Shown piece after piece: positions 15,836 through 41,785 of a stretch of 64,000 nt of DNA; position 1 is the stretch's first letter, and the number at the start of each line of letters is the position of its first letter. Source of the stretch: a candidate division WOR-3 bacterium UBA2258. GTDB lineage: Bacteria; Hydrothermota; Tepidihabitantia; Tepidihabitantales; Tepidihabitantaceae. A program made the position numbers and the translations under genes. The stretch spans positions 1,570 to 65,569 of the forward strand of contig DDXO01000113.1 in the NCBI GenBank assembly GCA_002347155.1, read 5' to 3'. The notes beneath the pieces are model-generated. The model was not told the origin of the DNA. It was given only the letters and a program-made list of their open reading frames with translations, and searched no databases.

Positions 15836-17782
15836 CTACTTCAGGAAGTACACCTCGCGGAGCTGCGGGCGGCTGAGTGCGTCGGCCGCGGCCTTGAGCT
15901 GTGCGAACTCGGCGACCGAGTAGTCTGTCTTCGTCAGCCTTAACGAGTAGTGGAAGCTCACTCCATCCGCCGTCTTCGCCCAGCCGCCCCGGGCCGTGAT
16001 GCCGGCGGCGGACACTGCGACGCTGTCCGGCAGGACATCCACCTTCAGTCCGCGCGGCAGCTTGATCTTACAGGTGTACTCGTAGCCGCGCGCCGGCTTG
16101 GTCTCGACCGGGTTCGTGCGGCGTGCGCTCGCGGTGAGCCAGAACAGCTCCTCGCCGACCACGGCCGGCGTCGGCACGCGCAGCGAGAGCTCGCCCTTCT
16201 GCGCCACTGCGTAGCGCGGCGCCGTGAAGAAGAAACCGGTGGCCGCCGGCTCGGTCAGATCGGCCAGGTCTGAGAACCAGAACGTGTCGATCTGCGCCCC
16301 GGTCTTGATTGACGAAGCGGTCTGGGCCAGTGCCCGCTTCCGGTCGCTCGAAGTCCGGTTGCGCCAGGCTTCGCGCAGGGAGTTGTCGTAGCAGCCGCCC
16401 GTCATGGTGGTCACCGTTCCGGAGAGGTTGCCGTTCAGTTCGAGCACGAGCTGGGCGGTCGTAACCGCCCGGTCAGCCGGGTTCGGACCCGCGCCCGGAC
16501 TCTTGGTCAGTTGCGTGCTTGCCGAGTCAAGAAGCAGCGCGTCAACCCCGGCGTCCTCGTCCGGTATGGTGCCGTAGATGCGATACTCGGCGAACGGGTC
16601 GAAGAGCATCGGTTTGCCGTCAACGGTCGCCAGTGTAGCGAGCCAGTCGAAGGCGTCGGGCGATGGCACGCCGGGCGGTACGTCCAGCGACGTGCTCAGC
16701 GCGACCGGCGTCGCCGATATGCCCCGAGCGTCGAGCAGGCTGACGAGGAGCCGGTTCTTGTCCCGGCTGTCGCCGTACTTCCAGTTCAGGATATCCTGCG
16801 CCCTGTTGGTTTCGTACCCCGCGTCGCCGTAGTCGAGCCAGATGCTCCGCACCTGCTGGGTGACGAACAGGTAGATGGCTCTCGCAGCTTCGGCATCGGA
16901 CTTGCCTGCGGCCAGGCTGTCGGCAGTCCGCTTCAAAACCGGTGAGGCGACGCGGCCTTTGTCGAAGTCCTTGCGCAGCTTCGTCGCGACCTGTTTCCAG
17001 TCTTTGTACGAAGAGTAGCTGAGCACGGGCACGAGTCGCTCGATGTCGGGCATCGCCGCCTCGCGGAATATCTGCGGCGTGTTTGTCGCCGTCCACGTGT
17101 GCGAGTCCTGTTCAACCACCTCTACGAGGTCCAGACTCGAACCCCGGACTTCCTCTCCCGCTCCAGACCAGGCGTGCGAGTATCCCACTCCCCCGGGCAC
17201 GATCAGCGTGAATTCGCGCTTCAGCGCCGGGTTGAATCCGCCGAACGTGACCGTTCCGGAGAAACCGTCCTCTTTCGCGTTCTTCTTCGGTCTGACCCGT
17301 ACGCGGTACTCGATGACTGCGTCCGGTTCCAGGGCCGGGAACGAAACCACCTTGAGCATCGCGTTGGTGTAGGCCATGGCGCCCGCCACCTCCGGTGCGG
17401 AGACGTCGGAAATCGCACGGGCCTCGGGTTTGACGATACTGCCGTCGGGCCGGTGGGTGCAGGCCTGGAGGACCTCCACGGTCTGGCCGTCTTTGTTGAA
17501 CCTCTGCGTGATTTCGCCGAATTCGTCCCGGCCGCGGTCTTCGAAGATTTTCACCACGAGGTAGCGGTCGAGCGTGGTCGAGTTGTTCTTGTTCACGGTG
17601 ACGGTCTTGCGGTCGAGCAGGATGAGTGCGCCGGCCTCGGGATAGGCTTCCTGACCCGGGGCGGCCCTGATGATGCTGTCTATCTCGCCACCCAGGGACA
17701 AAGTCACAAGGACAATGGAAAAGACGACAGCCAAGCTTGCCACTGGAATCCTTGAATCCTTGATCCCCTGAATCCTAGTCAT
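15836..17782 (-). CDS. secreted DUF3857-like / transglutaminase-like superfamily protein, paralogue B, predicted catalytically inactive (Cys to Ser)
   Basis: Hydrophobic N-terminus (signal peptide). Transglutaminase core region YGDSRDKNRLLVSLLDARGISATPV, where the paralogue has YGVCRDKAALLVGMLRHVGIDAYI. Confidence 0.65.
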   Translation of the reverse strand: MTRIQGIKDSRIPVASLAVVFSIVLVTLSLGGEIDSIIRAAPGQEAYPEAGALILLDRKTVTVNKNNSTTLDRYLVVKIFEDRGRDEFGEITQRFNKDGQTVEVLQACTHRPDGSIVKPEARAISDVSAPEVAGAMAYTNAMLKVVSFPALEPDAVIEYRVRVRPKKNAKEDGFSGTVTFGGFNPALKREFTLIVPGGVGYSHAWSGAGEEVRGSSLDLVEVVEQDSHTWTATNTPQIFREAAMPDIERLVPVLSYSSYKDWKQVATKLRKDFDKGRVASPVLKRTADSLAAGKSDAEAARAIYLFVTQQVRSIWLDYGDAGYETNRAQDILNWKYGDSRDKNRLLVSLLDARGISATPVALSTSLDVPPGVPSPDAFDWLATLATVDGKPMLFDPFAEYRIYGTIPDEDAGVDALLLDSASTQLTKSPGAGPNPADRAVTTAQLVLELNGNLSGTVTTMTGGCYDNSLREAWRNRTSSDRKRALAQTASSIKTGAQIDTFWFSDLADLTEPAATGFFFTAPRYAVAQKGELSLRVPTPAVVGEELFWLTASARRTNPVETKPARGYEYTCKIKLPRGLKVDVLPDSVAVSAAGITARGGWAKTADGVSFHYSLRLTKTDYSVAEFAQLKAAADALSRPQLREVYFLK

Positions 17783-19733
17783 TCTCTCCTCCCGTCTTCA
17801 GCATGACGTGCTGACGCTCGAGTTCCTCGGTCGCGGCCAGAAGGCTCCGCAGGTCTTCATACTCGGTTACCGGCACGAGCGGGGCTTTGAGCCGGAACGA
17901 TGCCTCGTTGGTCAGGAGCCGACCCTTGACGACGGTGGCTGACGTTGCTTCGAACTTGTCGTGTACTTGCGCGAGCGAGTCGGGCACCAGCACCGTCTTG
18001 AAACCTCGGGGCAGTGCCATCCGGTGGACCATATGCCAGGCGAGGGTCGAACGGAGGTCGACATCGTACCTGCGCACCGGCATCGTCGACGCCCAGGAGA
18101 TGGAGCTGGACGTGAACATGCCGCTGCCGGCCTTGGGCAGCGAGAAGCGGATGGTGGATTGGCGACTGGCGCCGGGCGATCCGGGTTTGAGAACGGTGGC
18201 GAAGTCGGGCACCGAGAAACGGAGTTTGATTACAAGCGGCTGGTCCAGGTCGCGCGCGTCAGTCATCGTGACGGTGTCCAGTCTCGCGCCCGGCCCGAAC
18301 GCGCGCAGGTAGGTCTCGAAGCGCTGCTTCTGCCTGAGCGGCGGCAGGTACTGGACCAGCGAGCGCAGGCTGAGTTCCTGCTGCCCGGTGGGCGTCAGCA
18401 CGACTGCGCCAGTGAGCGAACCGTCGGCCCGGAGCGTGTCGTCTATCTGCACCTCGAGCCGGTTCGAATCGGCCGGGATGAGCGGCGTGTAGCGCAGGTC
18501 GTCACCGTCCCGGGTGGCAATCAGCACCCCGCGGTTCATCTCCGAAGCCGCGAGATACTGGCGCGAGTTCTCAACCGTGGGGTCAAGGTAGTAGATACTC
18601 GAATCCGGCCGCTTCACCGCGACGGTCGCGTGGTTGAACTGGTCGACGGGCAGCTCGGCGTCGGTCTGTGACCCGGGGTTCGTCAAGGTGATGTAGGCGT
18701 CAATGCCGACGTGGCGCAGCATCCCGACGAGCAGCGCGGCCTTGTCGCGGCACACGCCGTAGCGTTTCTGGAAAGTGAGGCTGATTTGCTCCGGCTGGTA
18801 CCCTGCCTTCCTGCCCGAGTACGAGGTTTCGACGTAGCGGATGCGCTGGTTGACGAAGTTGTAGAGCGCGCGGACCTTGGCGTCGTCGGTCGGGGCGCCC
18901 GCGACGAGCGAGTCGAGCGCGCGCGCGAGGGCCGAGTCGATACCGTACTGGGTGGAACAGAGCTCGTAGTACCAGCGCGACCAGGTCTGCCAGTCAGGCT
19001 GGGTGCAGACGAGTAGCCGCGTCATTGATTCGCGGTACGGCATCATCGGCTCGTAGACCAGCTTGGGCAGGTCGTGCGCCGACCAGGTCGTGCGCCGGCG
19101 CCTGCCTCTGACTGCGAAGCTCGTGTCCACGCTGCCGCCCTTCACCAGCCAGCGGAACTTCATCGTTGCCGGCGCATCGATCGCGTAGGCCACACACAAC
19201 GCCGGGTCACCGCCTCCAAAGTAATGCTCGGCGTCGTACTGGCTCTCCATCACCGGGTTGTACATGATGTCCTCGGTAACCCATTCGACCGACGAACCAA
19301 GCGCAAGGCCGGGGAACTGGATGGACTTCACCCGCACGTTGGGCAGGACGAACTTCGACCCTTCCCAGAGCGGGGTGGGTACATCCACGATGTCCTTCTT
19401 TCCTACGTTCGCGATCCTCCCGTCCGGCGATATCACCCGGGCCATTCTGACCTCGGCCTTCGAATAGGTCAGGCAGTACTCGTCCCAGGTTGTTGCGTAC
19501 TGCTGCTTGCCCTGCTCGGTCAGGATTTTCACCAGTTTGTGCCGGCGGGTCACGTTCCGGCCGTCGGCCCGGAGCGTGACAAGCGTGGAATCGAACACGG
19601 TGACCGCGTTCGCGTCCGGGTACTTGTCAAGGGTGATGGTCTTCAAGAGCGCGACCGGCGGCGCAGCCGCGGCCGCGGCGCCGGTGAGGAGAGCAAGCGC
19701 CAGTGCCAATCCGGTGGTTCTATTCATAGTCAT
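17775..19733 (-). CDS. secreted DUF3857-like / transglutaminase-like superfamily protein, paralogue A (catalytic Cys present)
   Basis: Signal peptide MTMNRTTGLALALALLTGAAAAAAP. Transglutaminase core YGVCRDKAALLVGMLRHVGIDAYITL. Stop overlaps the start of paralogue B (operon). Confidence 0.7.
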   Translation of the reverse strand: MTMNRTTGLALALALLTGAAAAAAPPVALLKTITLDKYPDANAVTVFDSTLVTLRADGRNVTRRHKLVKILTEQGKQQYATTWDEYCLTYSKAEVRMARVISPDGRIANVGKKDIVDVPTPLWEGSKFVLPNVRVKSIQFPGLALGSSVEWVTEDIMYNPVMESQYDAEHYFGGGDPALCVAYAIDAPATMKFRWLVKGGSVDTSFAVRGRRRRTTWSAHDLPKLVYEPMMPYRESMTRLLVCTQPDWQTWSRWYYELCSTQYGIDSALARALDSLVAGAPTDDAKVRALYNFVNQRIRYVETSYSGRKAGYQPEQISLTFQKRYGVCRDKAALLVGMLRHVGIDAYITLTNPGSQTDAELPVDQFNHATVAVKRPDSSIYYLDPTVENSRQYLAASEMNRGVLIATRDGDDLRYTPLIPADSNRLEVQIDDTLRADGSLTGAVVLTPTGQQELSLRSLVQYLPPLRQKQRFETYLRAFGPGARLDTVTMTDARDLDQPLVIKLRFSVPDFATVLKPGSPGASRQSTIRFSLPKAGSGMFTSSSISWASTMPVRRYDVDLRSTLAWHMVHRMALPRGFKTVLVPDSLAQVHDKFEATSATVVKGRLLTNEASFRLKAPLVPVTEYEDLRSLLAATEELERQHVMLKTGGEND

Positions 19734-20102: not shown

Positions 20103-23100
20103 ATGGCGCAGCCTGCGAGGTTCCAGGTATCACAACTGGTCGCCGACCGTTTCCAAGTGCTTGACCGGCTCGGCGGCGGCGAATTCACGGAAACCTACAA
20201 GGTCACCGACACCGTCGCCAATCGGGTTCTTGCGCTGAAGACCCTGCGGACTGGCGCTCCCAAGTCGGCCGAGGCCCGACTCAATCGCGAATTCTACAGC
20301 CTGTCGCGCTTCTCACACCCGGGCATCGTCACGGCGCTTGACTACGGGTCAACGCCTGATGGACAGCCGTACTTCACCATGGAGTTCATCGAAGGGGTGC
20401 CGATCAATGTCTTCTTTGGGAAGGGCTTTCGTCCCGAACTGAAGACGGTCACGGTTCAACTGCTCGAAGCGCTGGCCCGCGTTCACGCGCAGGGCCTGAT
20501 TCACTGCGACCTCAAGCCGCAGAACATACTGGTGGCCGACAAAGACGGTTCCCTGCGGGCGAGGCTGATTGACTTCGGTTTTGCCGGTCAGCCGGCTCTC
20601 TCCGACGCGGACGCGGCGCGCGGGACATTGGGCTATGTCGCCCCGGAGGTACTCAAGGGCGTGGACACCGATGCCCGTGCCGACCTCTACTCGCTGGGCT
20701 TGGTGCTTTACGAGGTGATCGCCGGCCAGGGTCCGGGTAAGGACAGGGACCTTCGGAAGTGGCTCAGGATGCAGTATTTGTCTGAATTCAAGCCCCCCCG
20801 GGAGTTCGACGAGAATATCCCCGAGGACTTCGCGTCATTAGTGATGTCTCTGATACAGCGAGAGCCGGAGCGGCGGCCGCGCTCGGCCGCGGCAGTGATC
20901 GAGCAACTGACTCACCCCAAAGGTGAGCCGGCCGTCGAAATCGGGCCGCCCGAGTATTCCGTGGCACCGGGTTTTGTCGGTCGCGGTGATGAACTGGCCG
21001 GCCTCAAGGAGATGCTCGACAACGCGAGCAAAGGCAGGGCGGGCTCGGCCTGCGTCACGGGCGAGCGGGGAGTCGGCAAGAGCCGGCTGCTATCCGAGTT
21101 CAAGTTCATGGCGCAGCTCGAGGGCGCGACGATTCTCTCGTTCGAGCGCGCCTCGCTTGGAGCGAGACAGCCGTCGTTGGTCGAGATGATCCGCGGATAC
21201 CTCAGCACCTCCTCTGTCGCCGACATGCCGGCCGGCGACGAGAGCCGGGATGCAGCGCCGGGCGACAAGTATCGTCTGTTCGAGGCCGTGCTCCACGGCC
21301 TGAAGGAAATGAGCGCGTCGCCCCGGGTGCGGCACAGCCTCGTGTTGCTGGTTGACGACCTCGAGCTCTACGACTCGGACAGCCTCCAATTCCTTCGCTA
21401 CCTTGTTTTCGGTCTGAGCAACGAACGCCTTATGGTGCTCGTGGCCGGCGTAAGTGAAGCGCGGTTCTTGGACCTGGTTGCCGAGTTCGGCCGGACTGGC
21501 TGCTTCCAGCACTTCCAGTTGCCCCCGCTGGACCAGGCAGAGGTTACAGACCTGCTGGCATCGCTCGTCGACGAGATGCCGGGCACGGATGAGCTGGCCG
21601 AGTGGCTAACGCGCACTACCGGAGGGAATTCGCTCTTCGTGGTTGAGGCAATCCGGGCACTGATCGAAGGCGGAATCCTGTCCCGGCGGGGTAATCGCTG
21701 GACGCTGGTCCCGGGCGCACTGAATACCTACAAGACTCCGGAATCGGTGGCGGACGTACTGCGCCGGCGATTGGAAACCCTGGCCGCAATAGAGCTTGAG
21801 GTGCTCGAGGTCTCTGCAACCATAGCCGGGCCGTTTACGCTCGCGTTCCTGCGCGCGGTGGAGGAACAGCAGGATGAAGCGGCTCTGTCCGGCGCTGTCG
21901 GGAAGCTGAGGTCGCTGGGCCTGCTGCGCAGTCTCGTAATCGACGGCGAGGCGACCTTCGTGTTGTCGAGCAAGATGCTCGAAGCAGCGATCAACGAAGG
22001 GATGAGAGCTTCGGTCCGGCGCGAGAACCACCGCCGCGTCGCGCTGGTCATTGAAGCGCTCCATCCGGAGAAGACCGACCAACTGCTGTTCGACCTCGCG
22101 CACCATTACGCGCAGGCAGGCATTGAAGACCGCGCCTTCAACTACTCGTTGCAGGCCGGAACCCGAGCCCGCGAACGCCGGCTGAGCGAACAGGCACTCG
22201 GTTACTTCGAAACCGCGCTCGCGTTGGCGGCGCAGGCAGCAACGGCCCGAGAGAAGGTGGAACTGCACGAACGCGTCGGCGAATTGCGGGAGGCCACCGG
22301 GCGGTATCCCGAGGCGATTGACGCCTATACGCAGGGGATGGCAATAATCGCTGCCGACGCGGAACTCGCTCAGGACCAAGAGCTTTCATCCCGGTTCCGG
22401 CGCAGGGTGGGACTGGTGCAACAGAAGCAGGGTCACCACTATGAGGCCTTGGACAACTTCAACCAGGCGCTCCTGCTGCAGCCGGATAGAGGTGCGCCCG
22501 CATATATCGACACACTGAACGATATGGGTTGGTCGTACTACGCGCTCCGCGGTTACGGCCGGGCCGATCAACTGGTCTCCGCTGCCTTGCGACTGTCTGA
22601 GAATCTCAAGAACCGAACGCCGGCAGTCTACAGCCGATTGTCGGCCCGCTCGTTCTACCAGTTGAGCGTCCTCGCGTGGTCGCGGAGCGATCTGGTGCTG
22701 GCTCAGCAACTGGTTGAGCGCAGTCTCGAAATCTATGCGGGGATCGATGCGGAGCGCACCGCCGGCGAGGTCAGCCAGTTCCTTGCGACACTCTGGTGGA
22801 GTCGCGGCAACATTGCCAAAGCGAGGGACCAGTACCAACGGTGTCTGCCGGCGCAGCGGCGTTCGGGCGAGGTATACTCGCTGCTCCGTTCCCTGCAGGG
22901 TCTGGGAATCATATACCAGGCTGAATGCGAATGGGACAAGGCGTACAACTGCTTTGCCGAGGCGCTGAACCTGGCGGAGCGAATCGGCGACAACACGGCC
23001 ATCGCTGACCTCAACTCGAATCTCGGTACGATGAGCGAAGAACGTGGCGACTGGGACCAGGCTCTGGCGGCCTACCGCCGGGCGATTGAGCTGCGGCAGC

Positions 23101-25328
23101 AGGCACAGGCTGACCCCTACGGCCGAAACGTCGTCATGGCGAATCTGACCCAACTGCTCACCCGGCAGGGAGAAACGGCAGAGGCCGAGCGCTTGCTGGA
23201 GGAGATTCAGGCATTCGCGGGCCGGAACCCGACCTCGGATCTGGAATTCATGCTCGGCGTATGCCGTGTCCAGATCCTGCTTCGCACCGGGCGCCTCGAA
23301 GCCGCCCGGAACGCGGTTGCCCGGACGCTCCGGCTGGTCAGGCGCGAACGCGACCCGCGCAAACTCGCCCGGCTGCTCACCTTGGCCAGTGAACTGCGGC
23401 TGACGCAAGGGGAATTCGGCCGGGCTGCCGAGGACGCGCGCCGGGCACTGGTCTACCTCAGGGAGCAGGCGTCTTCCAGTGAGTATGCGGTCGCGCTGCG
23501 GTTTTCGGGGCTGGCCAAGTGCATGCTCGACCGCACCGACCGCGGGTTTCAGGAGATCCGCCGGAGTATCGAGCTGCTGAGGGAAACCGGCGTCCGGCAC
23601 GAATTGGCTCTCTCGCTCATGGCCTCGGCCCAGGCGCTCACCGGGTACGGCCGCCAGGAGATGACCCTCGACCTCAAGCTACCGCTTTCCTTCCGACCGG
23701 TTGCCGAACAGGACGTGGACGAGGCGCTGGCCAACCTCAAGGAGGCCCATGCGATCCTCCGCTCGATCGGGGCTCGCCCTGACGCGCAGCGGGCCGATGA
23801 GTTGATGGAGACGGTCAACCACGTATCCGCGACGTTGCGGCTGAAGGCGCGCGGCCGGGAGGAATACCTGGAGGTCTTCTACGAGATCAGCAAGCTCATC
23901 GGGCTGGGTCTGGAGAAGGAAGACTTTCTTGAGCACATCCTAGATTTGGTGATCGACGTCATCAAGGCCGAACGCGGGCTCCTTTTCCTCATGCAGCGCG
24001 GCAAGCTCGTGCCGGCGGCGGGACGGAACATCGACCATACTACGCTGGCAGATGCCACCGCGGTTTCCCGCTCGGTCTTGCGCAAAGTCAAAAGGGGCGA
24101 GACGGTCTTCAGCGCTGATGCACTGACGGATCCCCGTTTCAACAGCGCAAACAGCGTCATGCTCAATAAGATCCGTTCGCTGCTTTGCGTACCGCTCACG
24201 GTCGAGAAGCGCGTGGTGGGCACGATCTACGTCGACAGCCGGGTCACCGCGCATCTCTTTCTTGATGAGGACATGAATCTCCTCGTGTCCGTGGCAAACC
24301 TGTTGGCCGCCACTATCGACAAGTCGGCGGCGTTCAGGAAGCTGCAGGAGGAGATGTCCGTGCTGCGCGAGGATATGCTGGTGGACGCGGCCACCGGGTA
24401 CTTCATGGGCCGCTCCAAGGCGATGAAGGATGTGTACCGGGTGATTGACCGGATCGCCCCGTCCAACTGCACTGTGCTGCTGACCGGCGAAACCGGTACC
24501 GGCAAAGGTGTTCTGGCCCGGCTGATTCACGCGAAGAGCGAACGCCGCAGCCACGAATTCATGTCCATCAACTGCGGCGCTCTGCCCGAGAACCTGTTCG
24601 AGTCCGAACTGTTCGGCCACGCCCGGGGCGCCTTCACCGGCGCGGTCCGGGACAAAGACGGGCTGTTTGAGGCCGCTGTGGGAGGGACGGTCTTCCTGGA
24701 CGAGGTCAGCAACACGACGCTCGGCGTACAGGCTAAGTTGCTCCAGGTCCTCGACGAGAAGGTCGTGCGCCGGGTCGGCGAAACCCAACCGCGGAAGGTG
24801 GACGTACGGCTCGTCTGCGCGACAAACCGGGACCTTCGCCAGGACGTAAAAGCCGGGCGGTTCCGCGAGGACCTCTTCTACCGCGTGAACGGCGTGACTG
24901 TTAACGTCCCGGCATTGCGTGAGCGCTCCGGCGACATCGGGCTGCTCGCCGACTACTTCGTGAAGCGGTACGCTGGACAGATGAAAAAACCGGTAGACCG
25001 GTGCGAGGAAAGGGCGCTTGAGGTGCTTGCTAGCTACGCCTGGCCGGGCAATGTCCGCGAACTGCAGAATGTCATTGAACGCGCTGTCATCATGACCCAG
25101 AGTAACCGGATTGCCATTGATGACCTGGGAGCTCAGTTTGCCGGAATCGAAAGAATGACAGAAGTGCCTCGCGGCAAGCGCGAGCGATTCGAGCGCAGAG
25201 AAGTGGTCAACGCGCTGCGCGTCACCGGCGGGAACGTAAGCAAGGCAGCAGAGTTGCTGTCAGTTCACCGTCGGCAGTTCCAGCGACTGATGCAGCGCTT
25301 CGGAATAGACCGAACGAATCCCACCTAG
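20103..25328 (+). CDS. 1741-aa multidomain regulator: Ser/Thr protein kinase + STAND/AAA ATPase + TPR repeats + GAF + sigma-54 interaction (AAA+) domain + Fis-type HTH
   Basis: Kinase HCDLKPQNILV, DFGFA, GTLGYVAPE. Second P-loop GERGVGKSRLL. TPR-like repeats. GAF region. Sigma-54 activator motifs GETGTGKGVLARLIH, ESELFGHARGAFTGA, GTVFLDEV, CATNRDL. C-terminal HTH GNVSKAAELLSVHRRQFQRLM. Confidence 0.85.
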   Translation: MAQPARFQVSQLVADRFQVLDRLGGGEFTETYKVTDTVANRVLALKTLRTGAPKSAEARLNREFYSLSRFSHPGIVTALDYGSTPDGQPYFTMEFIEGVPINVFFGKGFRPELKTVTVQLLEALARVHAQGLIHCDLKPQNILVADKDGSLRARLIDFGFAGQPALSDADAARGTLGYVAPEVLKGVDTDARADLYSLGLVLYEVIAGQGPGKDRDLRKWLRMQYLSEFKPPREFDENIPEDFASLVMSLIQREPERRPRSAAAVIEQLTHPKGEPAVEIGPPEYSVAPGFVGRGDELAGLKEMLDNASKGRAGSACVTGERGVGKSRLLSEFKFMAQLEGATILSFERASLGARQPSLVEMIRGYLSTSSVADMPAGDESRDAAPGDKYRLFEAVLHGLKEMSASPRVRHSLVLLVDDLELYDSDSLQFLRYLVFGLSNERLMVLVAGVSEARFLDLVAEFGRTGCFQHFQLPPLDQAEVTDLLASLVDEMPGTDELAEWLTRTTGGNSLFVVEAIRALIEGGILSRRGNRWTLVPGALNTYKTPESVADVLRRRLETLAAIELEVLEVSATIAGPFTLAFLRAVEEQQDEAALSGAVGKLRSLGLLRSLVIDGEATFVLSSKMLEAAINEGMRASVRRENHRRVALVIEALHPEKTDQLLFDLAHHYAQAGIEDRAFNYSLQAGTRARERRLSEQALGYFETALALAAQAATAREKVELHERVGELREATGRYPEAIDAYTQGMAIIAADAELAQDQELSSRFRRRVGLVQQKQGHHYEALDNFNQALLLQPDRGAPAYIDTLNDMGWSYYALRGYGRADQLVSAALRLSENLKNRTPAVYSRLSARSFYQLSVLAWSRSDLVLAQQLVERSLEIYAGIDAERTAGEVSQFLATLWWSRGNIAKARDQYQRCLPAQRRSGEVYSLLRSLQGLGIIYQAECEWDKAYNCFAEALNLAERIGDNTAIADLNSNLGTMSEERGDWDQALAAYRRAIELRQQAQADPYGRNVVMANLTQLLTRQGETAEAERLLEEIQAFAGRNPTSDLEFMLGVCRVQILLRTGRLEAARNAVARTLRLVRRERDPRKLARLLTLASELRLTQGEFGRAAEDARRALVYLREQASSSEYAVALRFSGLAKCMLDRTDRGFQEIRRSIELLRETGVRHELALSLMASAQALTGYGRQEMTLDLKLPLSFRPVAEQDVDEALANLKEAHAILRSIGARPDAQRADELMETVNHVSATLRLKARGREEYLEVFYEISKLIGLGLEKEDFLEHILDLVIDVIKAERGLLFLMQRGKLVPAAGRNIDHTTLADATAVSRSVLRKVKRGETVFSADALTDPRFNSANSVMLNKIRSLLCVPLTVEKRVVGTIYVDSRVTAHLFLDEDMNLLVSVANLLAATIDKSAAFRKLQEEMSVLREDMLVDAATGYFMGRSKAMKDVYRVIDRIAPSNCTVLLTGETGTGKGVLARLIHAKSERRSHEFMSINCGALPENLFESELFGHARGAFTGAVRDKDGLFEAAVGGTVFLDEVSNTTLGVQAKLLQVLDEKVVRRVGETQPRKVDVRLVCATNRDLRQDVKAGRFREDLFYRVNGVTVNVPALRERSGDIGLLADYFVKRYAGQMKKPVDRCEERALEVLASYAWPGNVRELQNVIERAVIMTQSNRIAIDDLGAQFAGIERMTEVPRGKRERFERREVVNALRVTGGNVSKAAELLSVHRRQFQRLMQRFGIDRTNPT

Positions 25329-26981: not shown

Positions 26982-28254
26982 GTGGCTAATCCAGACTAGA
27001 AAGCGTCGGCGCAGCAACAATCCGAGACGGGGTTTGGGCCAAAGCCTGGACGGAGGTGTGATGGGCCATCCCTGGCTGGCAGTTACTATCAAACGGGGAC
27101 CGACAGACTGACTGCTGCGCCGACCATAATGAGCGACCCCCAACTGGAGGCGTACTGCAAAGACGTTCGGTATCATGGAGGCTGGACACCTGAACACCGC
27201 AGTCTACGTGCTTAGCGAGGCGAGACCCAGGGGCCGATTTCATTGTCCTTCCCAAAGCACAACGTGTGCCGAACAGCGTCGAGGAAGCCATTTTCGACGC
27301 AGGTCACGTATTTCCAACGACTAACGGAGAATCGCGTCGGCAGCGTCTGGTGCGACAACGAGGCGTGATGGCGATGGTAGAACGTATAACTAACGTATAT
27401 ATGGAACTTAAATGCCGTGACACTAGCATGTGCTCAAGTCTCACCTGCGCACCTGCCAACAGCGCGTTACAGACGTTTCCTCGATTTCCGCCATGGAAGT
27501 GGCCTAATGATCGCCGCTTGCGCATGGCTCCGCACATAGAAACGGCGTCCGGCTGCTGGAAGCGCGCGGGTTTTGGGCACCAGGGGCTTCCTGCGTGTGG
27601 ATTCAACGCCAGCACTGCTGAGGCGGGGTGTCGTCGCACCATAGGCCTTGTACGTCTCCTAGTCATATCATGCGTAGATACGTTGTTTATATGGTGCGAC
27701 ATTTGATTCGAGTCGCAATGGCTGGTTTGGACAGCGTCTATGCTTACTGCGCTGGTGACTTGGCTGGAGCGCTGCTGTGCCTAGAGTGGCAGCACAAGCC
27801 TACTTCCGGTTGCCTCCCGGCGCTGCCGGCACAGTAGCAGCTTGAAGCAGGTGCGCGGCGTTGGCCGGTCTCTCGCTCAGCCGGCGGGGCGGGGGCGTGA
27901 GGCGCAAGTACGGTCGAATGCCCTGCCGACGGCCGTTGTGTTCGGCGGCAGTTGAAGTTGGACGAAGTCCGGCTGTGGCGGTAGGGCTGCGTCGCCCTCG
28001 CGGGTTGTGAGCCGAATGCTGGCTGTACGTGAGTCCGGGGCCGGCGTTCAGGTTGTCCAGGAAACAGGTCCTCGGACCAGCGGTGCAGTCGCCGCCGGAC
28101 CCCGGATTCGTACGGTGACACTTCCTTGGTTGTATGCATTCACTTGACCTCGGGCCTCTTTCCGGATATAACATCCGCATGCAAGGCCGATTGGCGCACA
28201 AGCGACTCGGGAACAAGCCGTCGCCGCCCGGGCGTGCGGCGACTTCGAGGTACA

Positions 28255-31059
28255 ATGGAATACATTGACGCGTTGACGAACTCACTGCCGTCTGTTAGGG
28301 CTCCGTTCGAACTGGGACGGGCCGCGATGAAATCCTGCAGTTGGGACAAGGCGATCGGTTTCTTCGAAGTTGCGTCGAAAGACGCGGCTGGAACCGAGCT
28401 CGTCGCGCTCGCGAGTCTCACCGGGCTTTGTCACCGGATGTCGGGCAGGTGGCGGGAGGCTCGGGCAAGTCAAGAGGAGTCGTCCCGGCTGGCAGACCAG
28501 TTCGGGGACAGAGAAGGAAAGGCGATAGCGCTGACCAACCTCGGACCGGCCTGCCATGCCCTCGGTGAACTGGACAAGGCTCTCAAGTACCACGAACAGG
28601 CCCTGGCAATGGCGGACGAGGCCTCGAATCCGCGCCTGCAGGCCGAAAACCGCCGCGGCATCGGGCTCGTATACCTTGCCAGGGGCGATACCGAAAAAGC
28701 CCTCAAGCAGCACGAGCAGGCCCTTACCACATACCGCGCCGCCAGGCACTGGCCGGGCGAGGTAGAGGCGCTTTGCGACGTCGGGCTCGCATTTCAAGCC
28801 AGGGGCGAGACTGACAGGGCCATCAAGCAATACGAGCACGCAGTGACGGTCGGCCGCGAGATCGAGTATCTGCCGGGCGTCTCGACTGCTCTCGGTTGCG
28901 CCGGGAAAGCGTACCGGGATGCGGCCAAGCCGGACAAGGCGCTGAAGTACCTGGAAGAAGCGCTGGCGACGGCGCGCGAACTCGGGGACCTCCCGGCTCA
29001 GGCAGACAATCTCGGCAACATCGGGCTGGCTCACCTTGCCCGACTCGACGCCAGCAAGGCCAAGATACCCCTCGAGCAGGCGCTCACGCTGCAACGCCGG
29101 ATGGGAAACAAACCGGGCCTGGCGGCAGCACTGAACGGCGTCGGGCAGCTATATGCGGCGACGCGCCGCCCTGACAAGGCCCTGCAGTCATTCGAGGAAG
29201 CGCTGGCGACGGCGCGCGCTCTCGCTAACCCGCAGTTGCAGGCAGCGAGCCTGAGTAACATCGGGCTTCTCCATCAGGCCGGCGGCAGGCCGGACAGGGC
29301 GCTGAAGTGCTTCGCGCAGGCCCTGCTCCTGTACGCAGCCATCGGTTCCCGTGCAGGTGTCGAACAGGCCACCAAGAGCGTGAAGCCGCTGGCGATGCAG
29401 ATGGGCGCAGAGCGATTCGCGGCCGGATGCGTCGAGGCCGGGATGCCGAAGCCCGATGCCGATAAGCTGGCGAAGCAACTGCTGTCGATAGCCCCGTCGG
29501 CGCCAAAGGTCGACCGCGAGGCGCTGGCGCGGCGCACCAGTGAGGAAGCCGAGGCTCGAGTCCGGCTTGAGGAGGAACGCAAACGCGCCGCGCACCGCGT
29601 CCAGGAGGAAGTTGAAGAAAAGACACGCGCCGAGGTGGAACGAACGAAGCGCGCTGAAGAAGAGCGCCGGGTCGCCGCGCAACGTGCGAAAGAAGAGGCT
29701 GAGGCCGAGCGCAGGCGCAAGGAAGAGGAGCAGCGACTCGCCGCGCAGCGCGCCCAGGAAGAAGCCGAGGCAAAGACCCACACCGAGGCGGAGCGTGCAA
29801 AGAAAGCCGAGGAAGACCGCCGGGTTGCGGCTCAGCGCGCCAAGGAAGAAGCCGAGGCCAGGCGCCGCGCCGAGGCGGAACGGAAGCGTCGGCAGGAAGA
29901 GCAGCGGATTGCCGCGCAGCGGGCGAAGCAGGAAGCCGAGGCCAGGGCGAAGGTCGAAGCCGAGCGCAGGCGGAAGGAAGAGGAGAGGATGGCCGCCGAG
30001 CGACGCGCCCGGGAGGAAGCCGAAGCCAAGGCCCGGGCCGAAGAGGCGCGCCGCCAGGCTGAGCAGCGCGCGAAGGCAGAGGCCGAATCGAGGGCCAGGG
30101 CTGAGGTGGAAATCAAGCGGCTCGAGGAACAGGAGCGCAAGCTTGCACAGGCACGAGCCAAAGAGGATGCCAAGGCCACGGCCCGGCTGGACGCGGAACG
30201 CAGGAAACTTGAGGCAGAGGACCGCAGACTCAAGGAAGACGAACGCAGAATCGCGGAACGGCGGGCGCAGATCGAGGCTGAGATGAAGGCCTATGCCGCC
30301 GCTGAACCCGACCGCCGGGAAGAAGAACGGAAGCTCTCCGAACGACGGGCGCAGCTCGAGGCCGAGGTTAAGGCCCGTGCTGAGGCCGAGCGTAAGCGTG
30401 AAGAAGAGGAACAGAGCGTCCAAGAAGAGGCCGAGGCCAAAGTCAGAGTCGAGGCCGAGCACAAGCGGATCGAGGAAGAAGCACGCGCACTGGCCGAGAA
30501 ACGCGCCCGGCTGACGGCCGAAGCGAAGGCCAGCGCCGAAATGGAACGCCGGCTCGCTGAGCAACGCGCCCGGGAGGAAGCCGAAGCCAGTGCCCGCGCC
30601 GAAGAAGAACAGCGGAAGCTCGAAGAAGAGGAACGCCGCCTAGCCGAGATCCGTGCCAGGGAAGAAGCTGAGGTCAAGGCACGAGCTGAAGAGGAGCGAC
30701 GGAAGCTCGAGGAAGCCGAACGCCGGCTGGCCGAGATCCGCGCCCGGGAGGAAGCCGAAGCGAAGGCCCGCGCCGAGGCGGAGCGGAAGCTGGCCGAACT
30801 GCGCGCCGAAGAAGTGGCCGAAGCCCAGGCCCGCGCTGAAGAGAAGCGCAAACTCCTTGAGTACCGCGCTCAGCTCGAGGCCCAGGCCAGGGCCCGCGCC
30901 GAGGCGGAACGCAAACGGGCCCAGGAGCAGGCCGAGGCCAAGGCCCGCCTGGAGGCGGAGGCCAGGCGAGTCGAAGAAGAAGAGCGGAAACTGGCCGAGC
31001 GGCGCGCCAGGCTCGAAGCCGAAGCCAAGGCCCGCGCCGAAAAGGGACGCAAGAAGTAA
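28255..31059 (+). CDS. TPR-repeat protein with ~520-aa C-terminal ER/K-rich (EAEAKARAEAERKRR...) low-complexity helical repeat domain
   Basis: N-terminal ~380 aa contain many 34-aa TPR-like units (ALKYHEQALAMA..., ALKQHEQALTTY..., AIKQYEHAVTVG...). From ~29520 onward the sequence is a near-periodic E/A/R/K repeat. Start trimmed to the ATG at 28255 (MEYIDALT). Confidence 0.7.
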   Translation: MEYIDALTNSLPSVRAPFELGRAAMKSCSWDKAIGFFEVASKDAAGTELVALASLTGLCHRMSGRWREARASQEESSRLADQFGDREGKAIALTNLGPACHALGELDKALKYHEQALAMADEASNPRLQAENRRGIGLVYLARGDTEKALKQHEQALTTYRAARHWPGEVEALCDVGLAFQARGETDRAIKQYEHAVTVGREIEYLPGVSTALGCAGKAYRDAAKPDKALKYLEEALATARELGDLPAQADNLGNIGLAHLARLDASKAKIPLEQALTLQRRMGNKPGLAAALNGVGQLYAATRRPDKALQSFEEALATARALANPQLQAASLSNIGLLHQAGGRPDRALKCFAQALLLYAAIGSRAGVEQATKSVKPLAMQMGAERFAAGCVEAGMPKPDADKLAKQLLSIAPSAPKVDREALARRTSEEAEARVRLEEERKRAAHRVQEEVEEKTRAEVERTKRAEEERRVAAQRAKEEAEAERRRKEEEQRLAAQRAQEEAEAKTHTEAERAKKAEEDRRVAAQRAKEEAEARRRAEAERKRRQEEQRIAAQRAKQEAEARAKVEAERRRKEEERMAAERRAREEAEAKARAEEARRQAEQRAKAEAESRARAEVEIKRLEEQERKLAQARAKEDAKATARLDAERRKLEAEDRRLKEDERRIAERRAQIEAEMKAYAAAEPDRREEERKLSERRAQLEAEVKARAEAERKREEEEQSVQEEAEAKVRVEAEHKRIEEEARALAEKRARLTAEAKASAEMERRLAEQRAREEAEASARAEEEQRKLEEEERRLAEIRAREEAEVKARAEEERRKLEEAERRLAEIRAREEAEAKARAEAERKLAELRAEEVAEAQARAEEKRKLLEYRAQLEAQARARAEAERKRAQEQAEAKARLEAEARRVEEEERKLAERRARLEAEAKARAEKGRKK

Positions 31060-31121: not shown

Positions 31122-31211
31122 ACCGCTACAGAGGCACGTCCGGCTATTGGGGTTCCGGCGTTCGGAATTCAATCGTTATTCGAGTTTCGGACTTCGGGTT
31201 TCGTCCTGCGC

Positions 31212-32703: not shown

Positions 32704-35274
32704 CTACTCGGTCAGAACGATCTTGCGAGCAACTCGCGGCCTGCTGCCGACTTGGGCTTGAGCTTGCGCGTGGGCTTCTCTCACAAAGTACACCCCCGGC
32801 GCCAGATGGCTGATGTCGTTCAGCCCGACACTCAGTACTGCCACCCTGCGCCCGGTCGCGTCCCATAACTCGCTCGCCACCCAGATCCGCATCGGTGTTC
32901 CGCGGCGGATTGCCGTCGGACCAATGCCTAGCGCCCGCTTCTCGGATGCCAGCTCCTCCAGCCCGACGAGCATGCTGTCACGTATCACGGGAATCACATC
33001 TCCGTATCTGTAGTAGTCGTACTGCGCTACGTAGATGCGGTTCGTGACACGGTTCAGCACGAGTGAGTTCTTCTCGGCGGCCATCGATGGTGGCAGCCGC
33101 ACCGTCGCAACCGCACTGTCGCCCCGCACGTCAATCACCAGAAGCGCTGAATCGGCCATGGAAGCGCAATAGACGAAGTTTCCGGTGTGGTCCAAGCACA
33201 TATCAGATATCATCTGCCCCACCCAGAAGGAGTCCACAAGAACGTTGGTCCTGGTGTCGATTATGAACATGTGTGAGCTGCCGGGCCAATGGCTAGGGTA
33301 GGCTACACCGCAATAGACCTTGTGCGAGTGCGGTGTATTGACGAAACTCACTCGGACGGCGTAGGGAATCCGCCCATGAAGGGTGCAAACCTCGGCGGGC
33401 TTATCCATATTCACGCTGCGTATGCTGGTTGTTGCCCCACCTGTGTATATCCTGCGGTCCGCTGGGCAGGCGACGGCGTCGTTGATGGTCCCTAGGGTAT
33501 CGGGGGCGGAGGCGACAATGCTGTCGCCCGCGCAGTCTATGGCCACCACGGACCACGTGCCAAGACACCACAGCGTGTTGTCCTCGGGCACGAGTAGCAG
33601 TTCGTAGATTCGCCCACCGTAAGCAGGAATGCTCACCACTTTGGTCAAGCTGTCGCGGTCGCAGTCGATGACATCTATGAAGTAGCCGCTGCGGGCCGGG
33701 TCGTAGGCGCAGGCGTACAGCTTGTTCAGACCCCTATGAAGTTGAGTGACGCGCACTTCGTTGTTCGTTATCACCTTGTGGACAACGGTATTCGTGGAGC
33801 AATCGTAGACGGTCACCGAGTTGCCGTGGCCGCTCCACGCCGCCGTGCTCCAATACAGTCGATTGTTGTTCGAGTTGTAGCAGAGCGCCGCGGGATTCTC
33901 GCCTGCATACGCATAGGAAGTGACGACATTCCGAGCGCAGTCGACTACCCCAACACTGCCGCACGCCGATGGCCCGTACATGAAGTAGAGTAAGTTGCGC
34001 ACGGTGTCCAGGACGATGCTCCCGGCCTTCATCGTCAGCGGAACAACGCCAGCGACGCTGTCACCCGTGCCATCGATGGCCGAGAGCAGACAGCCACCGT
34101 ACCGCTGGTCTCCACTGACTCGTCGCACCGGAAAGCAGTACAACCGGTTGAGACCCGGGCTCCAGCCTCCACCGGGTGGGACACCATCGACATAGACGCT
34201 AGTCAGCTGCTCGCCGGTCGTGCCGTCGTACATGAAGACCTCGTCGTAGTAGGTCCTGAAAAAGATGTAGAGCAGGTCCCGCGCGGTATTGCAGGCTAGG
34301 AAGGTGATGGGAAGTATGGTGATGGTCGTCTTAAGGACTGTATCCGCCGTACAGTCTATGCCGGTCAAGATGCCCCAGTCGCGGTCGGAACCCGTGCAGT
34401 AGATGCGGTTTCGCTGAGGGTCGCACGCCAGCAGCGGCTTCAGGCTGTCAAAGGGAAGCCGGGCAACAACACTGTCGCCATCAGTCCGGATGGCGAATAG
34501 GGTGTCGATAGTAGCAGCATAGACCTTCTGGGCGGTTGGATTCCAGCAGAGCGCAACAGCCGAACGAACCTCGGGCAGGACGACGACGACGCTGTCCGTG
34601 GCGCAGTCGATCACCGCAAGCCACCCGTTCCGACCGACGTACAACTTGTTTGAAGCTGAGTCGTAGCCGAAAGCTGACGCCGCCACGGGAATCGTGCCCA
34701 TCATTGTATCCGAAGCACAGTCGATGACGGAGATATGGTCGCCGCCGCAGTACAAGCGATCGTTCTGAGCGTTGTACTGCATGACCGGGACAATCCGGGC
34801 ACTGTGAATGGCTGACGTGATTTGGTACGTGGCACAGTCCACCACCACAACTGAGTCAACGTCTAACCTGGCAACGTAGAGCTTGCCGTGTGGCGGCACG
34901 TAGCAGAGAGCCTTCACTGGACCAGTAGAAACGCGGGCAAGTCTCTTGCAGGTGATGGCCTCAGCAACGATGACCCCACCGCTGTCGGCTTCTCCACCGA
35001 CGTAGAGCCGTGGATGCGCCGGATTCTCATCCCAAGCCAGGTGATACGGACCATTCAGCGGCCCGAGTGTGTCCGGTAGCTTGATCGTCGTTTCGAGATA
35101 CTGGGCCGAGAGGGGCGACGCAAGCAGCGCCCCCAGCGCCAGCACGAAAACCAGCACCTTTGGCCCCGTGAGGTGGCCGCAGATCAATCGTTCACGATTC
35201 CTCGGCGCATTCTGCGCCATCCGATACTCCGAGCCGGTGTGAACCCTGTTCATTCGAACCTCCACAGCGCCCAA
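32704..35274 (-). CDS. secreted YVTN-type beta-propeller repeat protein with T9SS-type (TIGR04183-like) C-terminal sorting domain
   Basis: Signal peptide; many repeats ending in LY/IY-x-G (NKLYVG, NRLYCG, NRIYCTG, NKLYACA, RRIYTGG). C-terminus GRRVAVLSVGLNDISHLAPGVYFVREAHAQ...RKIVLTE resembles the Por secretion CTD. Confidence 0.7.
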   Translation of the reverse strand: MGAVEVRMNRVHTGSEYRMAQNAPRNRERLICGHLTGPKVLVFVLALGALLASPLSAQYLETTIKLPDTLGPLNGPYHLAWDENPAHPRLYVGGEADSGGVIVAEAITCKRLARVSTGPVKALCYVPPHGKLYVARLDVDSVVVVDCATYQITSAIHSARIVPVMQYNAQNDRLYCGGDHISVIDCASDTMMGTIPVAASAFGYDSASNKLYVGRNGWLAVIDCATDSVVVVLPEVRSAVALCWNPTAQKVYAATIDTLFAIRTDGDSVVARLPFDSLKPLLACDPQRNRIYCTGSDRDWGILTGIDCTADTVLKTTITILPITFLACNTARDLLYIFFRTYYDEVFMYDGTTGEQLTSVYVDGVPPGGGWSPGLNRLYCFPVRRVSGDQRYGGCLLSAIDGTGDSVAGVVPLTMKAGSIVLDTVRNLLYFMYGPSACGSVGVVDCARNVVTSYAYAGENPAALCYNSNNNRLYWSTAAWSGHGNSVTVYDCSTNTVVHKVITNNEVRVTQLHRGLNKLYACAYDPARSGYFIDVIDCDRDSLTKVVSIPAYGGRIYELLLVPEDNTLWCLGTWSVVAIDCAGDSIVASAPDTLGTINDAVACPADRRIYTGGATTSIRSVNMDKPAEVCTLHGRIPYAVRVSFVNTPHSHKVYCGVAYPSHWPGSSHMFIIDTRTNVLVDSFWVGQMISDMCLDHTGNFVYCASMADSALLVIDVRGDSAVATVRLPPSMAAEKNSLVLNRVTNRIYVAQYDYYRYGDVIPVIRDSMLVGLEELASEKRALGIGPTAIRRGTPMRIWVASELWDATGRRVAVLSVGLNDISHLAPGVYFVREAHAQAQAQVGSRPRVARKIVLTE

Positions 35275-40291: not shown

Positions 40292-41785
40292 CTAGAGAAG
40301 GACGAGCCTGCGTGTGAAGCACGTTCCCGGCCCTCTGAGCTGGAGGAAGAACGTGCCCGCCGGAACCCGATCGCCGGACTGCAACTTCCGGTCCCAGTTC
40401 CAGAACTGGGGTCCGGGCTCGAGCCACGCCTGAAACACGTTCGCTACGAGGCGGCCGGCGGCGTCGTAGACTGCGAGCGAGTAGCTGCCCGGCCGGCTGA
40501 TGGTCGCGCTGAACTGCACTGTCCCGACCGCGGGGTTGGGCCACGCGGCAGGAAGCCGTAATCGCGCTTCGGTGGCCGGGTCCTCGGGAGAGGAGAGCCA
40601 CGGCGCGCTAAACCAGACGCCCAGGGGTCCGGCGTCGGACTGCTGGCTGTAGAACAGACCCGGCAGCCGCATCGGCGCGTGCGGCACATAGACGAGCTTT
40701 GGCGGGAGCCTGGATAGTGGACGCCGGCTGACCTTGACCGGTTCCAGCCAGCCGTCGAGGTTAAGGGAGTTAGCGCACGTCCACCATGCCGCGACTGAGT
40801 CTCCGTTGCGCCGGCTGCTGGAGCTGTAGCAGAGACTGACATAGTCGTTTGGAGCGGACCGGTCAACGGCAAGGCAGGGCTGCTGCTCGTCACGGAACGA
40901 GTTACCGAACGGCAGACCCGGGGTCCAGGTCGAACCGCCGTCCGCGCTCGCCGAGTACTCGAGGTCGAGCACCGCCGTATCGCGGCGCCCGGCGGTGTAG
41001 AAAATCCAGACTGCGGCCTGGAATTCCGGGCTGGAGTCGGCCTGTACTACGGTCGGTTCGAGGCACTGACCCGCGAAGGTGTCGCTCACGACCCGGTATG
41101 TAGACCAGTAGCCGGGCATCGCGTAGTGGCGGTTATAGGAATAGTGAATCTCGCCGCCATTGAGCGCGTAGCGCCAGGCGCAGTGAACCGTAGAGCCGTT
41201 CGTGTAGGAAACGCATGGGTCCCACGCGTTCCACCAGTCGGTTCCCGCCTCCCAGGACGCGCCGTAGTCGAGTGACCGGGTGAAGGTGCCGGTGCGGCCG
41301 GTACGGTGCTCGTTTGCATAAAGGCAGTAAAGGTAGTAGTGGTCGTCGCGGTCGAGCGCTGCCGAAAAGTCGTCAACCGTGTCCGGACCCACCGCGACCG
41401 GCGCCAGTGAGAACAGGCCCGAGTCAGGGCCGATCCGTGCCAGCCACAAGTCACCGGCACCCCCGGCCACGAGCAGGAAAATGTAGAGAAACGAGGAGTC
41501 GCCCTGGCCGAAGAGCAGTTGCAGCTTCCGAACTGCCGAGTCGGCGCGGACCGCGCCGCGGGTCTGCCAACTGGAGCCGAAATCACTCGAGCGATAGAGC
41601 CCGACTGTGTGGTCGGCGTTCGCAACTGCCGCCCAGATAACCCCGGCGGTGTCGGCCACCGCATCAAAGGCACTGACCTTGCCGGTGTCGACCAGGACTT
41701 CCGATTCCCAGAACCCGGCGAGCGCGACCGACCCGGCCGCCAGCAGAGACAGGATGGTACCTGCGCTTCGCACCGACATATTCAA
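40292..41785 (-). CDS. secreted BNR/Asp-box repeat (sialidase-like beta-propeller) protein with T9SS-type C-terminal sorting domain
   Basis: Asp-box motifs SSDFGSSW, SLDYGASW, SADGGSTW. C-terminus LAVYDAAGRLVANV...GTFFLQLRGPGTCFTRRLVLL. Confidence 0.65.
   Translation of the reverse strand: MNMSVRSAGTILSLLAAGSVALAGFWESEVLVDTGKVSAFDAVADTAGVIWAAVANADHTVGLYRSSDFGSSWQTRGAVRADSAVRKLQLLFGQGDSSFLYIFLLVAGGAGDLWLARIGPDSGLFSLAPVAVGPDTVDDFSAALDRDDHYYLYCLYANEHRTGRTGTFTRSLDYGASWEAGTDWWNAWDPCVSYTNGSTVHCAWRYALNGGEIHYSYNRHYAMPGYWSTYRVVSDTFAGQCLEPTVVQADSSPEFQAAVWIFYTAGRRDTAVLDLEYSASADGGSTWTPGLPFGNSFRDEQQPCLAVDRSAPNDYVSLCYSSSSRRNGDSVAAWWTCANSLNLDGWLEPVKVSRRPLSRLPPKLVYVPHAPMRLPGLFYSQQSDAGPLGVWFSAPWLSSPEDPATEARLRLPAAWPNPAVGTVQFSATISRPGSYSLAVYDAAGRLVANVFQAWLEPGPQFWNWDRKLQSGDRVPAGTFFLQLRGPGTCFTRRLVLL

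Follow-up and report, generated by a model that had tools for sequence, protein, structure and literature searches.

In a stretch of 64,000 nucleotides (nt) from the candidate division WOR-3 bacterium UBA2258 (contig DDXO01000113.1), hereafter the window, we examined a gene whose product of 934 amino acids (aa) joins an N-terminal array of tetratricopeptide repeats (TPR) to a C-terminal tail made up largely of glutamate, alanine, arginine and lysine. An earlier note, drawn from the DNA letters alone, had described an ER/K-rich (glutamate- and arginine/lysine-rich) periodic domain of ~520 aa appended to a TPR protein, and both the coordinates and the description were correct, the tail measuring 512 aa. 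The features of the gene and its immediate flank are listed in Table 1.

Table 1. Features of the TPR plus charged-helix gene (AF2, AlphaFold2; pLDDT, predicted local distance difference test; TRF, Tandem Repeats Finder; a/d, heptad positions a and d).
Feature	Position (nt)	Strand	Basis
Whole gene, TPR plus charged-helix protein, 934 aa	28255..31059	+	Open reading frame, TAA stop included
N-terminal 45 aa, helical, low model confidence	28255..28389	+	AF2 pLDDT 40-51
TPR superhelix, aa 46-383, 17 helices, about 8 repeats of 40 aa	28390..29403	+	Pfam TPR_12, AF2, Foldseek
Cap motif GAERFAAGCVEAGMPKPDADKLAKQLL, aa 384-410	29404..29484	+	Nearly invariant in 12 orthologues
Short Pro/Ala/Ser-rich linker SIAPSAPKVDRE, aa 411-422	29485..29520	+	AF2, orthologue alignment
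Tail part 1, aa 423-616, purest charged-helix segment	29521..30102	+	Hydrophobicity, charge pairs
Tail part 2, aa 617-712, less regular centre with conserved hydrophobic stripe	30103..30390	+	Conserved columns
Tail part 3, aa 713-934, regular 21/29-aa units	30391..31056	+	TRF, a/d occupancy 0.36
Terminator-like hairpin, ~90 nt past the stop, weak evidence	31150..31170	+	Consensus scan: 9-pair stem, then T-rich tail

The open reading frame (ORF) spans 28126-31059 on the plus strand, with the stop codon at 31057-31059, and the actual start is the ATG at 28255. Gene calls in two other assemblies begin at this ATG and give exactly the same 934-aa product, a GAGG motif lies 4 nt 5' of it, and the orthologues described below begin at the same methionine, their N-termini reading M(T)EYLDGL. 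The first 45 aa are kept in the orthologues as MEYLDGL..LP.VR.PF.LGRAAM. Neither a signal peptide nor a membrane segment is evident by eye in the window protein, which we therefore take to be cytoplasmic.

The assignment of the N-terminal part to the TPR class, already made in the earlier note, is borne out by Pfam, in which TPR_12 matches with an E-value of 9e-39 (132 bits against a cutoff of 30.1) and TPR_1 with 83 bits (cutoff 27.8), scores above the gathering threshold being accompanied by the paired-helix repeats that Pfam asks of a TPR. These matches occupy the first 40% of the protein, and nothing was matched beyond them. AF2 models this part as 17 helices at a 40-aa spacing with a pLDDT of 85-95, and its best Foldseek matches are the TPR domains of LGN/Pins (E-value 3e-14, target-normalised TM-score 0.56-0.68). 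With LGN/Pins (GPSM2) it shares eight 40-residue TPRs wound into a superhelix, at 20-23% identity. The LGN/Pins superhelix binds extended peptides, and by analogy that of the window protein probably does so too. Membership of the LGN/Pins family was rejected, since the likeness is one of fold and of the generic TPR_12 consensus and no GoLoco family was found in the Pfam scan of the window protein. Membership of the TPR-CHAT proteins, which match the window protein at 28-35% over its TPR third only and carry no charged tail, was likewise rejected, no match to Pfam CHAT (PF12770) being obtained in the window protein at E-values up to 0.1. The superhelix is followed by the cap motif and by the short linker, in which AF2 gives no secondary structure at aa 411-420 (pLDDT < 50) and which is variable among orthologues.

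The tail extends over aa 423-934 (nt 29521-31056) and runs directly into the TAA stop. It contains 27.3% E, 24.0% A, 20.5% R, 8.4% K, 4.9% Q and 4.9% L, with a single G and a single P, so that E, A, R, K and Q together account for 85% of its residues. Charged residues make up 57% (D 1.2%) for a net charge of +2, and large hydrophobics (LIVMFYW) 10%. The periodicity that had been noticed in these residues is far above chance, the residue autocorrelation peaking at lags of 8, 21, 29, 50 and 79 aa (z of 6 to 9.5 against shuffles). Splitting the tail at EAEA anchors resolves it into about 20 diverged units of 21, 28 or 29 aa that share a motif order, with a consensus of roughly EAEAKARAEAERRK.EEEERR[LIVM]A[AE].RA[KRQ][EL]; the unit quoted as an example in the earlier note lies at aa ~796-832. 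Units within one protein are ~33% alike, and at the DNA level they are only 60-83% identical, the best array reported by TRF being 87 nt x 2.8 copies with 75% matches and exact direct repeats of the tail DNA reaching 26 nt at most.

The three parts of the tail differ in regularity. In the first, large hydrophobics account for 6% of residues, a/d occupancy by hydrophobics is 0.14 and there are 0.35 opposite-charge pairs per residue at i/i+4. In the second, about ten heptads each carry a conserved L, I, F, Y or M at one position, aromatics are present, and the sole proline of the tail (P685) is located; the conserved hydrophobic columns are 620, 623, 630, 645, 652, 666, 673, 677, 680, 694, 701, 705 and 708. 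The third contains the best-preserved 87-nt repeats, at 30544-30785, and conservation of the tail is highest over its last ~80 aa (nt 30820-31056), which are kept in all orthologues. A 142-aa protein from a 631-nt contig (P0122, locus L003, ENA ERZ23499653) has a ParD/ribbon-helix-helix-like N-terminus and an end that is 73% identical, without gaps, to the C-terminal 79 aa of the window protein and by eye even closer to L033; either the short contig is a chimera or the C-terminal module has genuinely been transferred.

Conservation and origin of the tail

The window shares identical DNA over 17 kb with two other assemblies, and the exact 934-aa product is encoded on a 183-kb ENA contig and on a 34-kb JGI contig, so that the comparison across assemblies, which the earlier note had suggested as a check, returned the same sequence both times. 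Locus searches at the DNA level, not protein searches, revealed eleven further WOR-3 loci with the TPR-plus-tail architecture, in which the TPR part is 56-80% identical (mean 66% between orthologues). The tails of these orthologues, aligned in register, are 65-83% identical (mean 74%), and this value falls to 22-41% after deliberate misregistration by 8-50 columns. The ratio of nonsynonymous to synonymous substitution rates (dN/dS) is 0.09-0.24 in the tail as compared with 0.16-0.49 in the TPR part. These comparisons establish a real and conserved gene on which purifying selection acts, and they indicate that the array of the tail is old, with units that are individually conserved and a frame that is translated. 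Two long ORFs overlap the tail in other frames, one of 458 aa on the minus strand (29188-30564) and one of 248 aa on the plus strand (29540-30286); they are rich in L/G/F or R/P/S/K, reappear at orthologous loci as nothing more than shadows of this gene with its biased composition, and should not be annotated as genes.

The eleven complete tails, that of the window included, measure 439, 474, 503, 503, 504, 511, 512 (window), 514, 514, 517 and 559 aa. In their alignment 18 of the 27 distinct gap runs are 7, 8, 14, 21, 22, 29 or 58 aa long, and these preferred sizes amount to whole cycles of the charge pattern described below. Judged from this alignment, tail length evolves slowly and in fixed steps. 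The repeat had been expected to be a hotspot of length variation, an expectation that is not supported, given the divergence of its units, their being kept in register and the narrow range of the eleven lengths.

The closest relatives in the protein databases are stand-alone TPR proteins of 444-448 aa (38-40% identity, 96% coverage), which end a few residues past the cap motif ...RE(E/R)FV..CV.AGM....AEGL... More broadly, the stand-alone proteins of ~445 aa share the TPR array and the C-terminal cap motif with the window protein at 38-45% identity and have no charged tail. Tail-less paralogues occur in WOR-3 genomes as well (L011, L044 and L045), and in L011 and P0150-P0152 the cap motif again lies at the extreme C-terminus. 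Because L011, L044, L045 and P0150-P0152, which lack the tail, all terminate just past this motif, the tail must have been joined in one lineage to a TPR protein that already existed, and is thus a lineage-specific addition.

A first search with the full-length protein returned TPR matches only, covering a third of the query and without a self hit, and no full-length homologue of the window protein was found in the protein databases. With the tail, Pfam and NCBIfam gave only TolA (TIGR02794, 15.6 bits against a cutoff of 59.45, in the charged region only), and TolA identity was rejected, the NCBIfam score being below cutoff and a Pfam TolA match being absent. No PDB sequence matched the tail at E-values up to 1. 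A HMMER search of the tail against 1.84 billion representatives gave 29 weak matches, the best at 60.7 bits, and a profile built from 11 orthologous tails gave only compositional matches of at most 60 bits. As far as these searches can tell, homologues of the tail are confined to the orthologue set.

The weak matches point to a common type of region, namely E/A/K/R segments of 100-460 aa with a charge period of 7-8 aa, which are frequent in unrelated bacterial proteins (AsmA-like proteins, kinases, PorP/SprF, GspE, ParA-like proteins, a caspase and two TPR proteins). The helices of TolA domain II and of the AsmA-like, PorP/SprF, kinase, GspE and ParA-like proteins agree with the tail in composition and in charge period, although the matches, at 60 bits or less, are compositional only. 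Many of these proteins are membrane-anchored or periplasmic and carry the helix between domains, whereas no signal or membrane segment is evident in the window protein. The 29-aa unit, equal to 8 helical turns and with a charge period of about 7.25 aa, arises independently in P0125, P0126, P0131, P0132 and P0168, which suggests that selection has converged on unit lengths preserving the charge register of the helix. The view that such a tail is unusual for a bacterial TPR protein therefore holds in one respect, since the closest TPR relatives are tail-less and the databases yielded no full-length homologue, and is weakened in another, since analogous helices are common and two of them occur in TPR proteins. 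The kind of rod is already known, and the member in the window stands out by its length, its terminal position and its unusually strong conservation. Charge-periodic E/A/K/R helices being widespread among proteins of bacteria, the motif is not a eukaryotic speciality.

A candidate charged single alpha-helix and its alternatives

Opposite charges are paired at i/i+4 in the tail 174 times, against 84±7 in shuffled sequences (z 12.3), and same-charge pairs at this spacing number 17 where 84 are expected (z -9.1); opposite-charge pairs at i+3 are also in excess (z 4.3). The Fourier spectrum of charge peaks at 7.2 aa, with a power of 21.3 against a shuffle maximum of 6.6. This period equals two helical turns, the 29-aa unit corresponding to 8 turns and 4 charge cycles, and because charges alternate with it almost every E lies 3-4 residues from a K or R. 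The FT_CHARGE criterion for single helices is a charge periodicity of about 6-9 residues. Opposite-charge pairs at i/i+4 amount to 0.34 per residue in the tail, compared with 0.12 in tropomyosin (the control sequence) and 0.68 in the de novo single helix (AEEEKRK)14, and mean a/d occupancy in the best register is 0.29 as against 0.57 in tropomyosin. Only 29 of the 512 columns are conserved as hydrophobic. Alanine alternates with a period of 2 (EAEAKARAEAE) and forms no face, and neither the positive nor the negative residues of the tail have a period near 3.6, so that there is no basic stripe; a basic or hydrophobic face on the tail helix was rejected on these grounds.

AF2, run on the single sequence, gives one continuous helix over residues 421-930 (510 residues) without any fold-back, at a pLDDT of 50-70. 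With 0.15 nm per residue such a rod would be about 77 nm long, and 66-84 nm across the orthologues. The sequence features by which single helices are recognized, that is a stretch of at least 40 residues rich in E/K/R with few hydrophobics, i/i+4 pairing and charge periodicity, are all found in the tail, and the hallmarks of an ER/K single helix, one of the two forms named in the earlier note, were thus recovered, whereas the canonical coiled-coil pattern of hydrophobics at both a and d was not. The solitary helix of the AF2 model is no more than suggestive of the monomeric state, high helicity in solution and non-cooperative unfolding that also mark such domains. Taken together, the sequence statistics are better explained by a charged single alpha-helix than by a coiled coil.

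Stable single alpha-helices (SAH), also termed charged single alpha-helices (CSAH), have been described as a class (PMC5812594). The tail shares with the ER/K SAH domains of myosin VI/X, caldesmon and INCENP a composition rich in E, R and K, dense i/i+4 pairing, few hydrophobics, a charge period within 6-9 residues and a long predicted solitary helix. It differs from them in containing 24% alanine and EAEAKARA-type units instead of E4K4, in being C-terminal and not placed between two domains, and in being bacterial and without sequence homology to the eukaryotic examples. It is also far longer, 512 aa and about 77 nm being, to our knowledge, over twice the length of the longest natural single helices characterised.

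On balance, we are inclined to regard the tail as a very long ER/K-type charged single alpha-helix in which alanine dilutes the charges. The protein, which occurs in one WOR-3 clade, would in this model lead from an 8-repeat TPR superhelix through the cap motif and a 12-residue Pro-rich hinge into a 512-residue charged single helix. Negative and positive residues alternate along it roughly once per helical turn, and the chain would be kept as a monomeric, semi-rigid rod by salt bridges within the helix and by the high helix propensity of Ala, Glu, Arg and Lys. Such a rod would most likely provide reach for the TPR module, as a long-reach tether or distance-setting arm, and the central stripe (aa 617-712) and the last ~80 aa would be the best candidates for contacts at the far end, with partners or with other copies of the protein. 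The monomeric state, the rigidity and the cellular role of the tail are what we infer from these patterns, which hint at long-range tethering or scaffolding in WOR-3 cells, in a phylum without a cultured model. The rigid spacer or scaffold proposed in the earlier note agrees with this interpretation as regards the long helix; the word spacer does not apply, since the helix reaches the C-terminus and links no two domains. If the predicted single helix is borne out, it would be natural, stable in evolution and over twice the length of the ER/K helices that now serve as calibrated spacers in proteins. The twelve orthologues would in addition offer a natural length series, from 439 to 559 aa and stepping by whole charge cycles, of use for studying how register and stiffness are maintained and as a source of long rigid linkers.

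Several observations weigh against a single helix with this role. With 57% charged residues and 24% alanine the tail is less extreme than classic E4K4 motifs, the AF2 confidence of 50-70 comes from a single-sequence run, and a free-ended rod is not a classical inter-domain spacer. No conserved operon partner was found within 5-10 kb among the 12 loci, which leaves the proposed role without contextual support. Furthermore, the sparse hydrophobics recur, weakly but above the shuffle null, with a heptad-like period of 3.54, and a/d occupancy is intermediate, at 0.45 in the centre (aa 617-712) and 0.36 in the C-terminal part (aa 713-934), so that partial self-association of the central and C-terminal tail is possible.

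This last point leads to the main rival, partial coiled-coil pairing of the distal two thirds. In that case the tail, or its central and C-terminal two thirds, would be a homodimeric or higher-order coiled coil, a fibrous scaffold or an element akin to a cytoskeleton that displays two or more TPR heads, and the N-terminal third would be a single-helix spacer, as in myosin VI and X before the dimerisation region. We consider it unlikely. In its favour, the stripe of 'a' positions in the centre of the tail runs over about ten heptads (aa 638-712), and indels of 7 and 14 aa there keep the hydrophobic stripe in heptad phase. The conserved hydrophobic columns of the tail repeat every 3.54 residues with a power of 0.80 against a null maximum of 0.57; the elevated a/d occupancy of the centre and of the C-terminal part points the same way. 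However, while the 'a' positions of aa 617-712 read DLLLIIYRLLR, 8 of the 11 'd' positions are charged and the other three are alanine, overall a/d occupancy is half that of tropomyosin with large hydrophobics at 10%, alanine with its period of 2 builds no face, and the charge pairing is overwhelmingly intra-helical. The bacterial proteins crescentin, FilP and Scy are, like the window protein, long, repetitive, helical and cytoplasmic, but they have a normal hydrophobic core seam and the tail does not. Scy has unusual long repeats, which the 50-aa super-period of the tail (21+29) recalls. An antiparallel hairpin with its hinge at the Pro or Gly in mid-tail (P685, the near-exact midpoint) was rejected as unlikely: L033 and L037 do not conserve the hinge residue, and the lengths of the N- and C-terminal halves do not co-vary among orthologues (189/249, 215/258, 244/314).

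Less probable again are two bolder versions of the single-helix model. According to one, the tail would be a monomeric helix of ~75 nm, the longest natural one known, selected for its length (66-84 nm, in whole charge cycles) and acting as a cytoplasmic ruler or tether; according to the other, the TPR groove would bind the C-terminal ~80 aa of another copy, building head-to-tail filaments. If the second version were true, the filaments would represent a new kind of bacterial cytoskeletal polymer.

It is improbable that the tail is a largely disordered polyampholyte acting through bulk properties (for instance solubility, steric exclusion or the forming of condensates) and not as a defined rod. 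Its low complexity and 57% charged residues, the intermediate AF2 confidence and the lack of a database family would be in keeping with such a region, but regions of this kind normally keep composition rather than register, whereas the tail keeps 65-83% positional identity at a dN/dS of 0.09-0.24, which is a stronger conservation than that of the folded TPR domain. The i/i+4 charge order far above that of shuffles, the near absence of helix breakers (1 G, 1 P) and the indels in whole charge cycles also argue against disorder.

Even less credit is due to a lengthwise binding of nucleic acid, or of some other polyanion or polycation, by the charged helix, which would measure or bridge a defined length of it, like the KER of CAF-1. 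A DNA-binding, length-selecting function is documented for the CAF-1 single alpha-helix (PMC10335832), and this precedent would suit the fairly conserved length of the tail (439-559 aa). Against it stand a net charge of merely +2 over 512 residues and the missing helical-face periodicity near 3.6 for either charge. Finally, that the repeat is an assembly artefact or its frame spurious is next to impossible: repetitive, biased DNA does yield long shadow ORFs on the opposite strand and in other frames, but the sequence is the same in three assemblies, its longest exact repeat of 26 nt leaves the suspected assembly collapse without basis, and the frame is open in twelve orthologues with a dN/dS well below 1 and is continuous with a high-scoring TPR domain.

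Neighbouring genes

The TPR gene is preceded by a gap of ~1 kb (27198-28254), in which no convincing gene, no Rfam match and no sigma-70-like promoter were found; one assembly calls a 113-aa ORF there on the minus strand. Downstream of the gene, the hairpin in Table 1 belongs to a class of terminator-like sites that are no more numerous in the region than in shuffled sequences. No other ER/K-rich genes are present in the window.

Two genes upstream of the TPR gene, a single protein of 1741 aa (20103-25328, plus strand) combines a Ser/Thr kinase, an AAA_16 ATPase, TPR_12/MalT-type TPRs, GAF, a sigma-54 activator AAA+ domain and a Fis-type helix-turn-helix, an unusually complete signalling chain within one polypeptide. 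Control of the TPR gene by this giant kinase/sigma-54 activator was considered and rejected, as no match to a -24/-12 promoter was found upstream of the gene. Further upstream there is a pair of DUF3857/transglutaminase-like genes (15836-19733, minus strand), and immediately 5' of the orthologue at locus L039 (525-4526) there is a pair of ORFs that looks similar, judged by eye from the N-terminal sequences. This pair is the sole hint of shared synteny, and L039 has neither the kinase-activator nor the oxidoreductase genes.

On the other side, a large YVTN/YncE-like beta-propeller repeat protein is encoded at 32704-35274 on the minus strand. The JGI and ENA contigs end at ~35228 and ~35344, within about 120 nt of each other and at the 5' end of this 856-aa beta-propeller gene, where the window reads through; the site between these positions holds no repeats of 20 nt or more. 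At 40292-41785, also on the minus strand, the encoded protein shows a weak FlgD-Ig-like match at its C-terminus, an ending typical of secreted proteins in candidate phyla of the FCB group.

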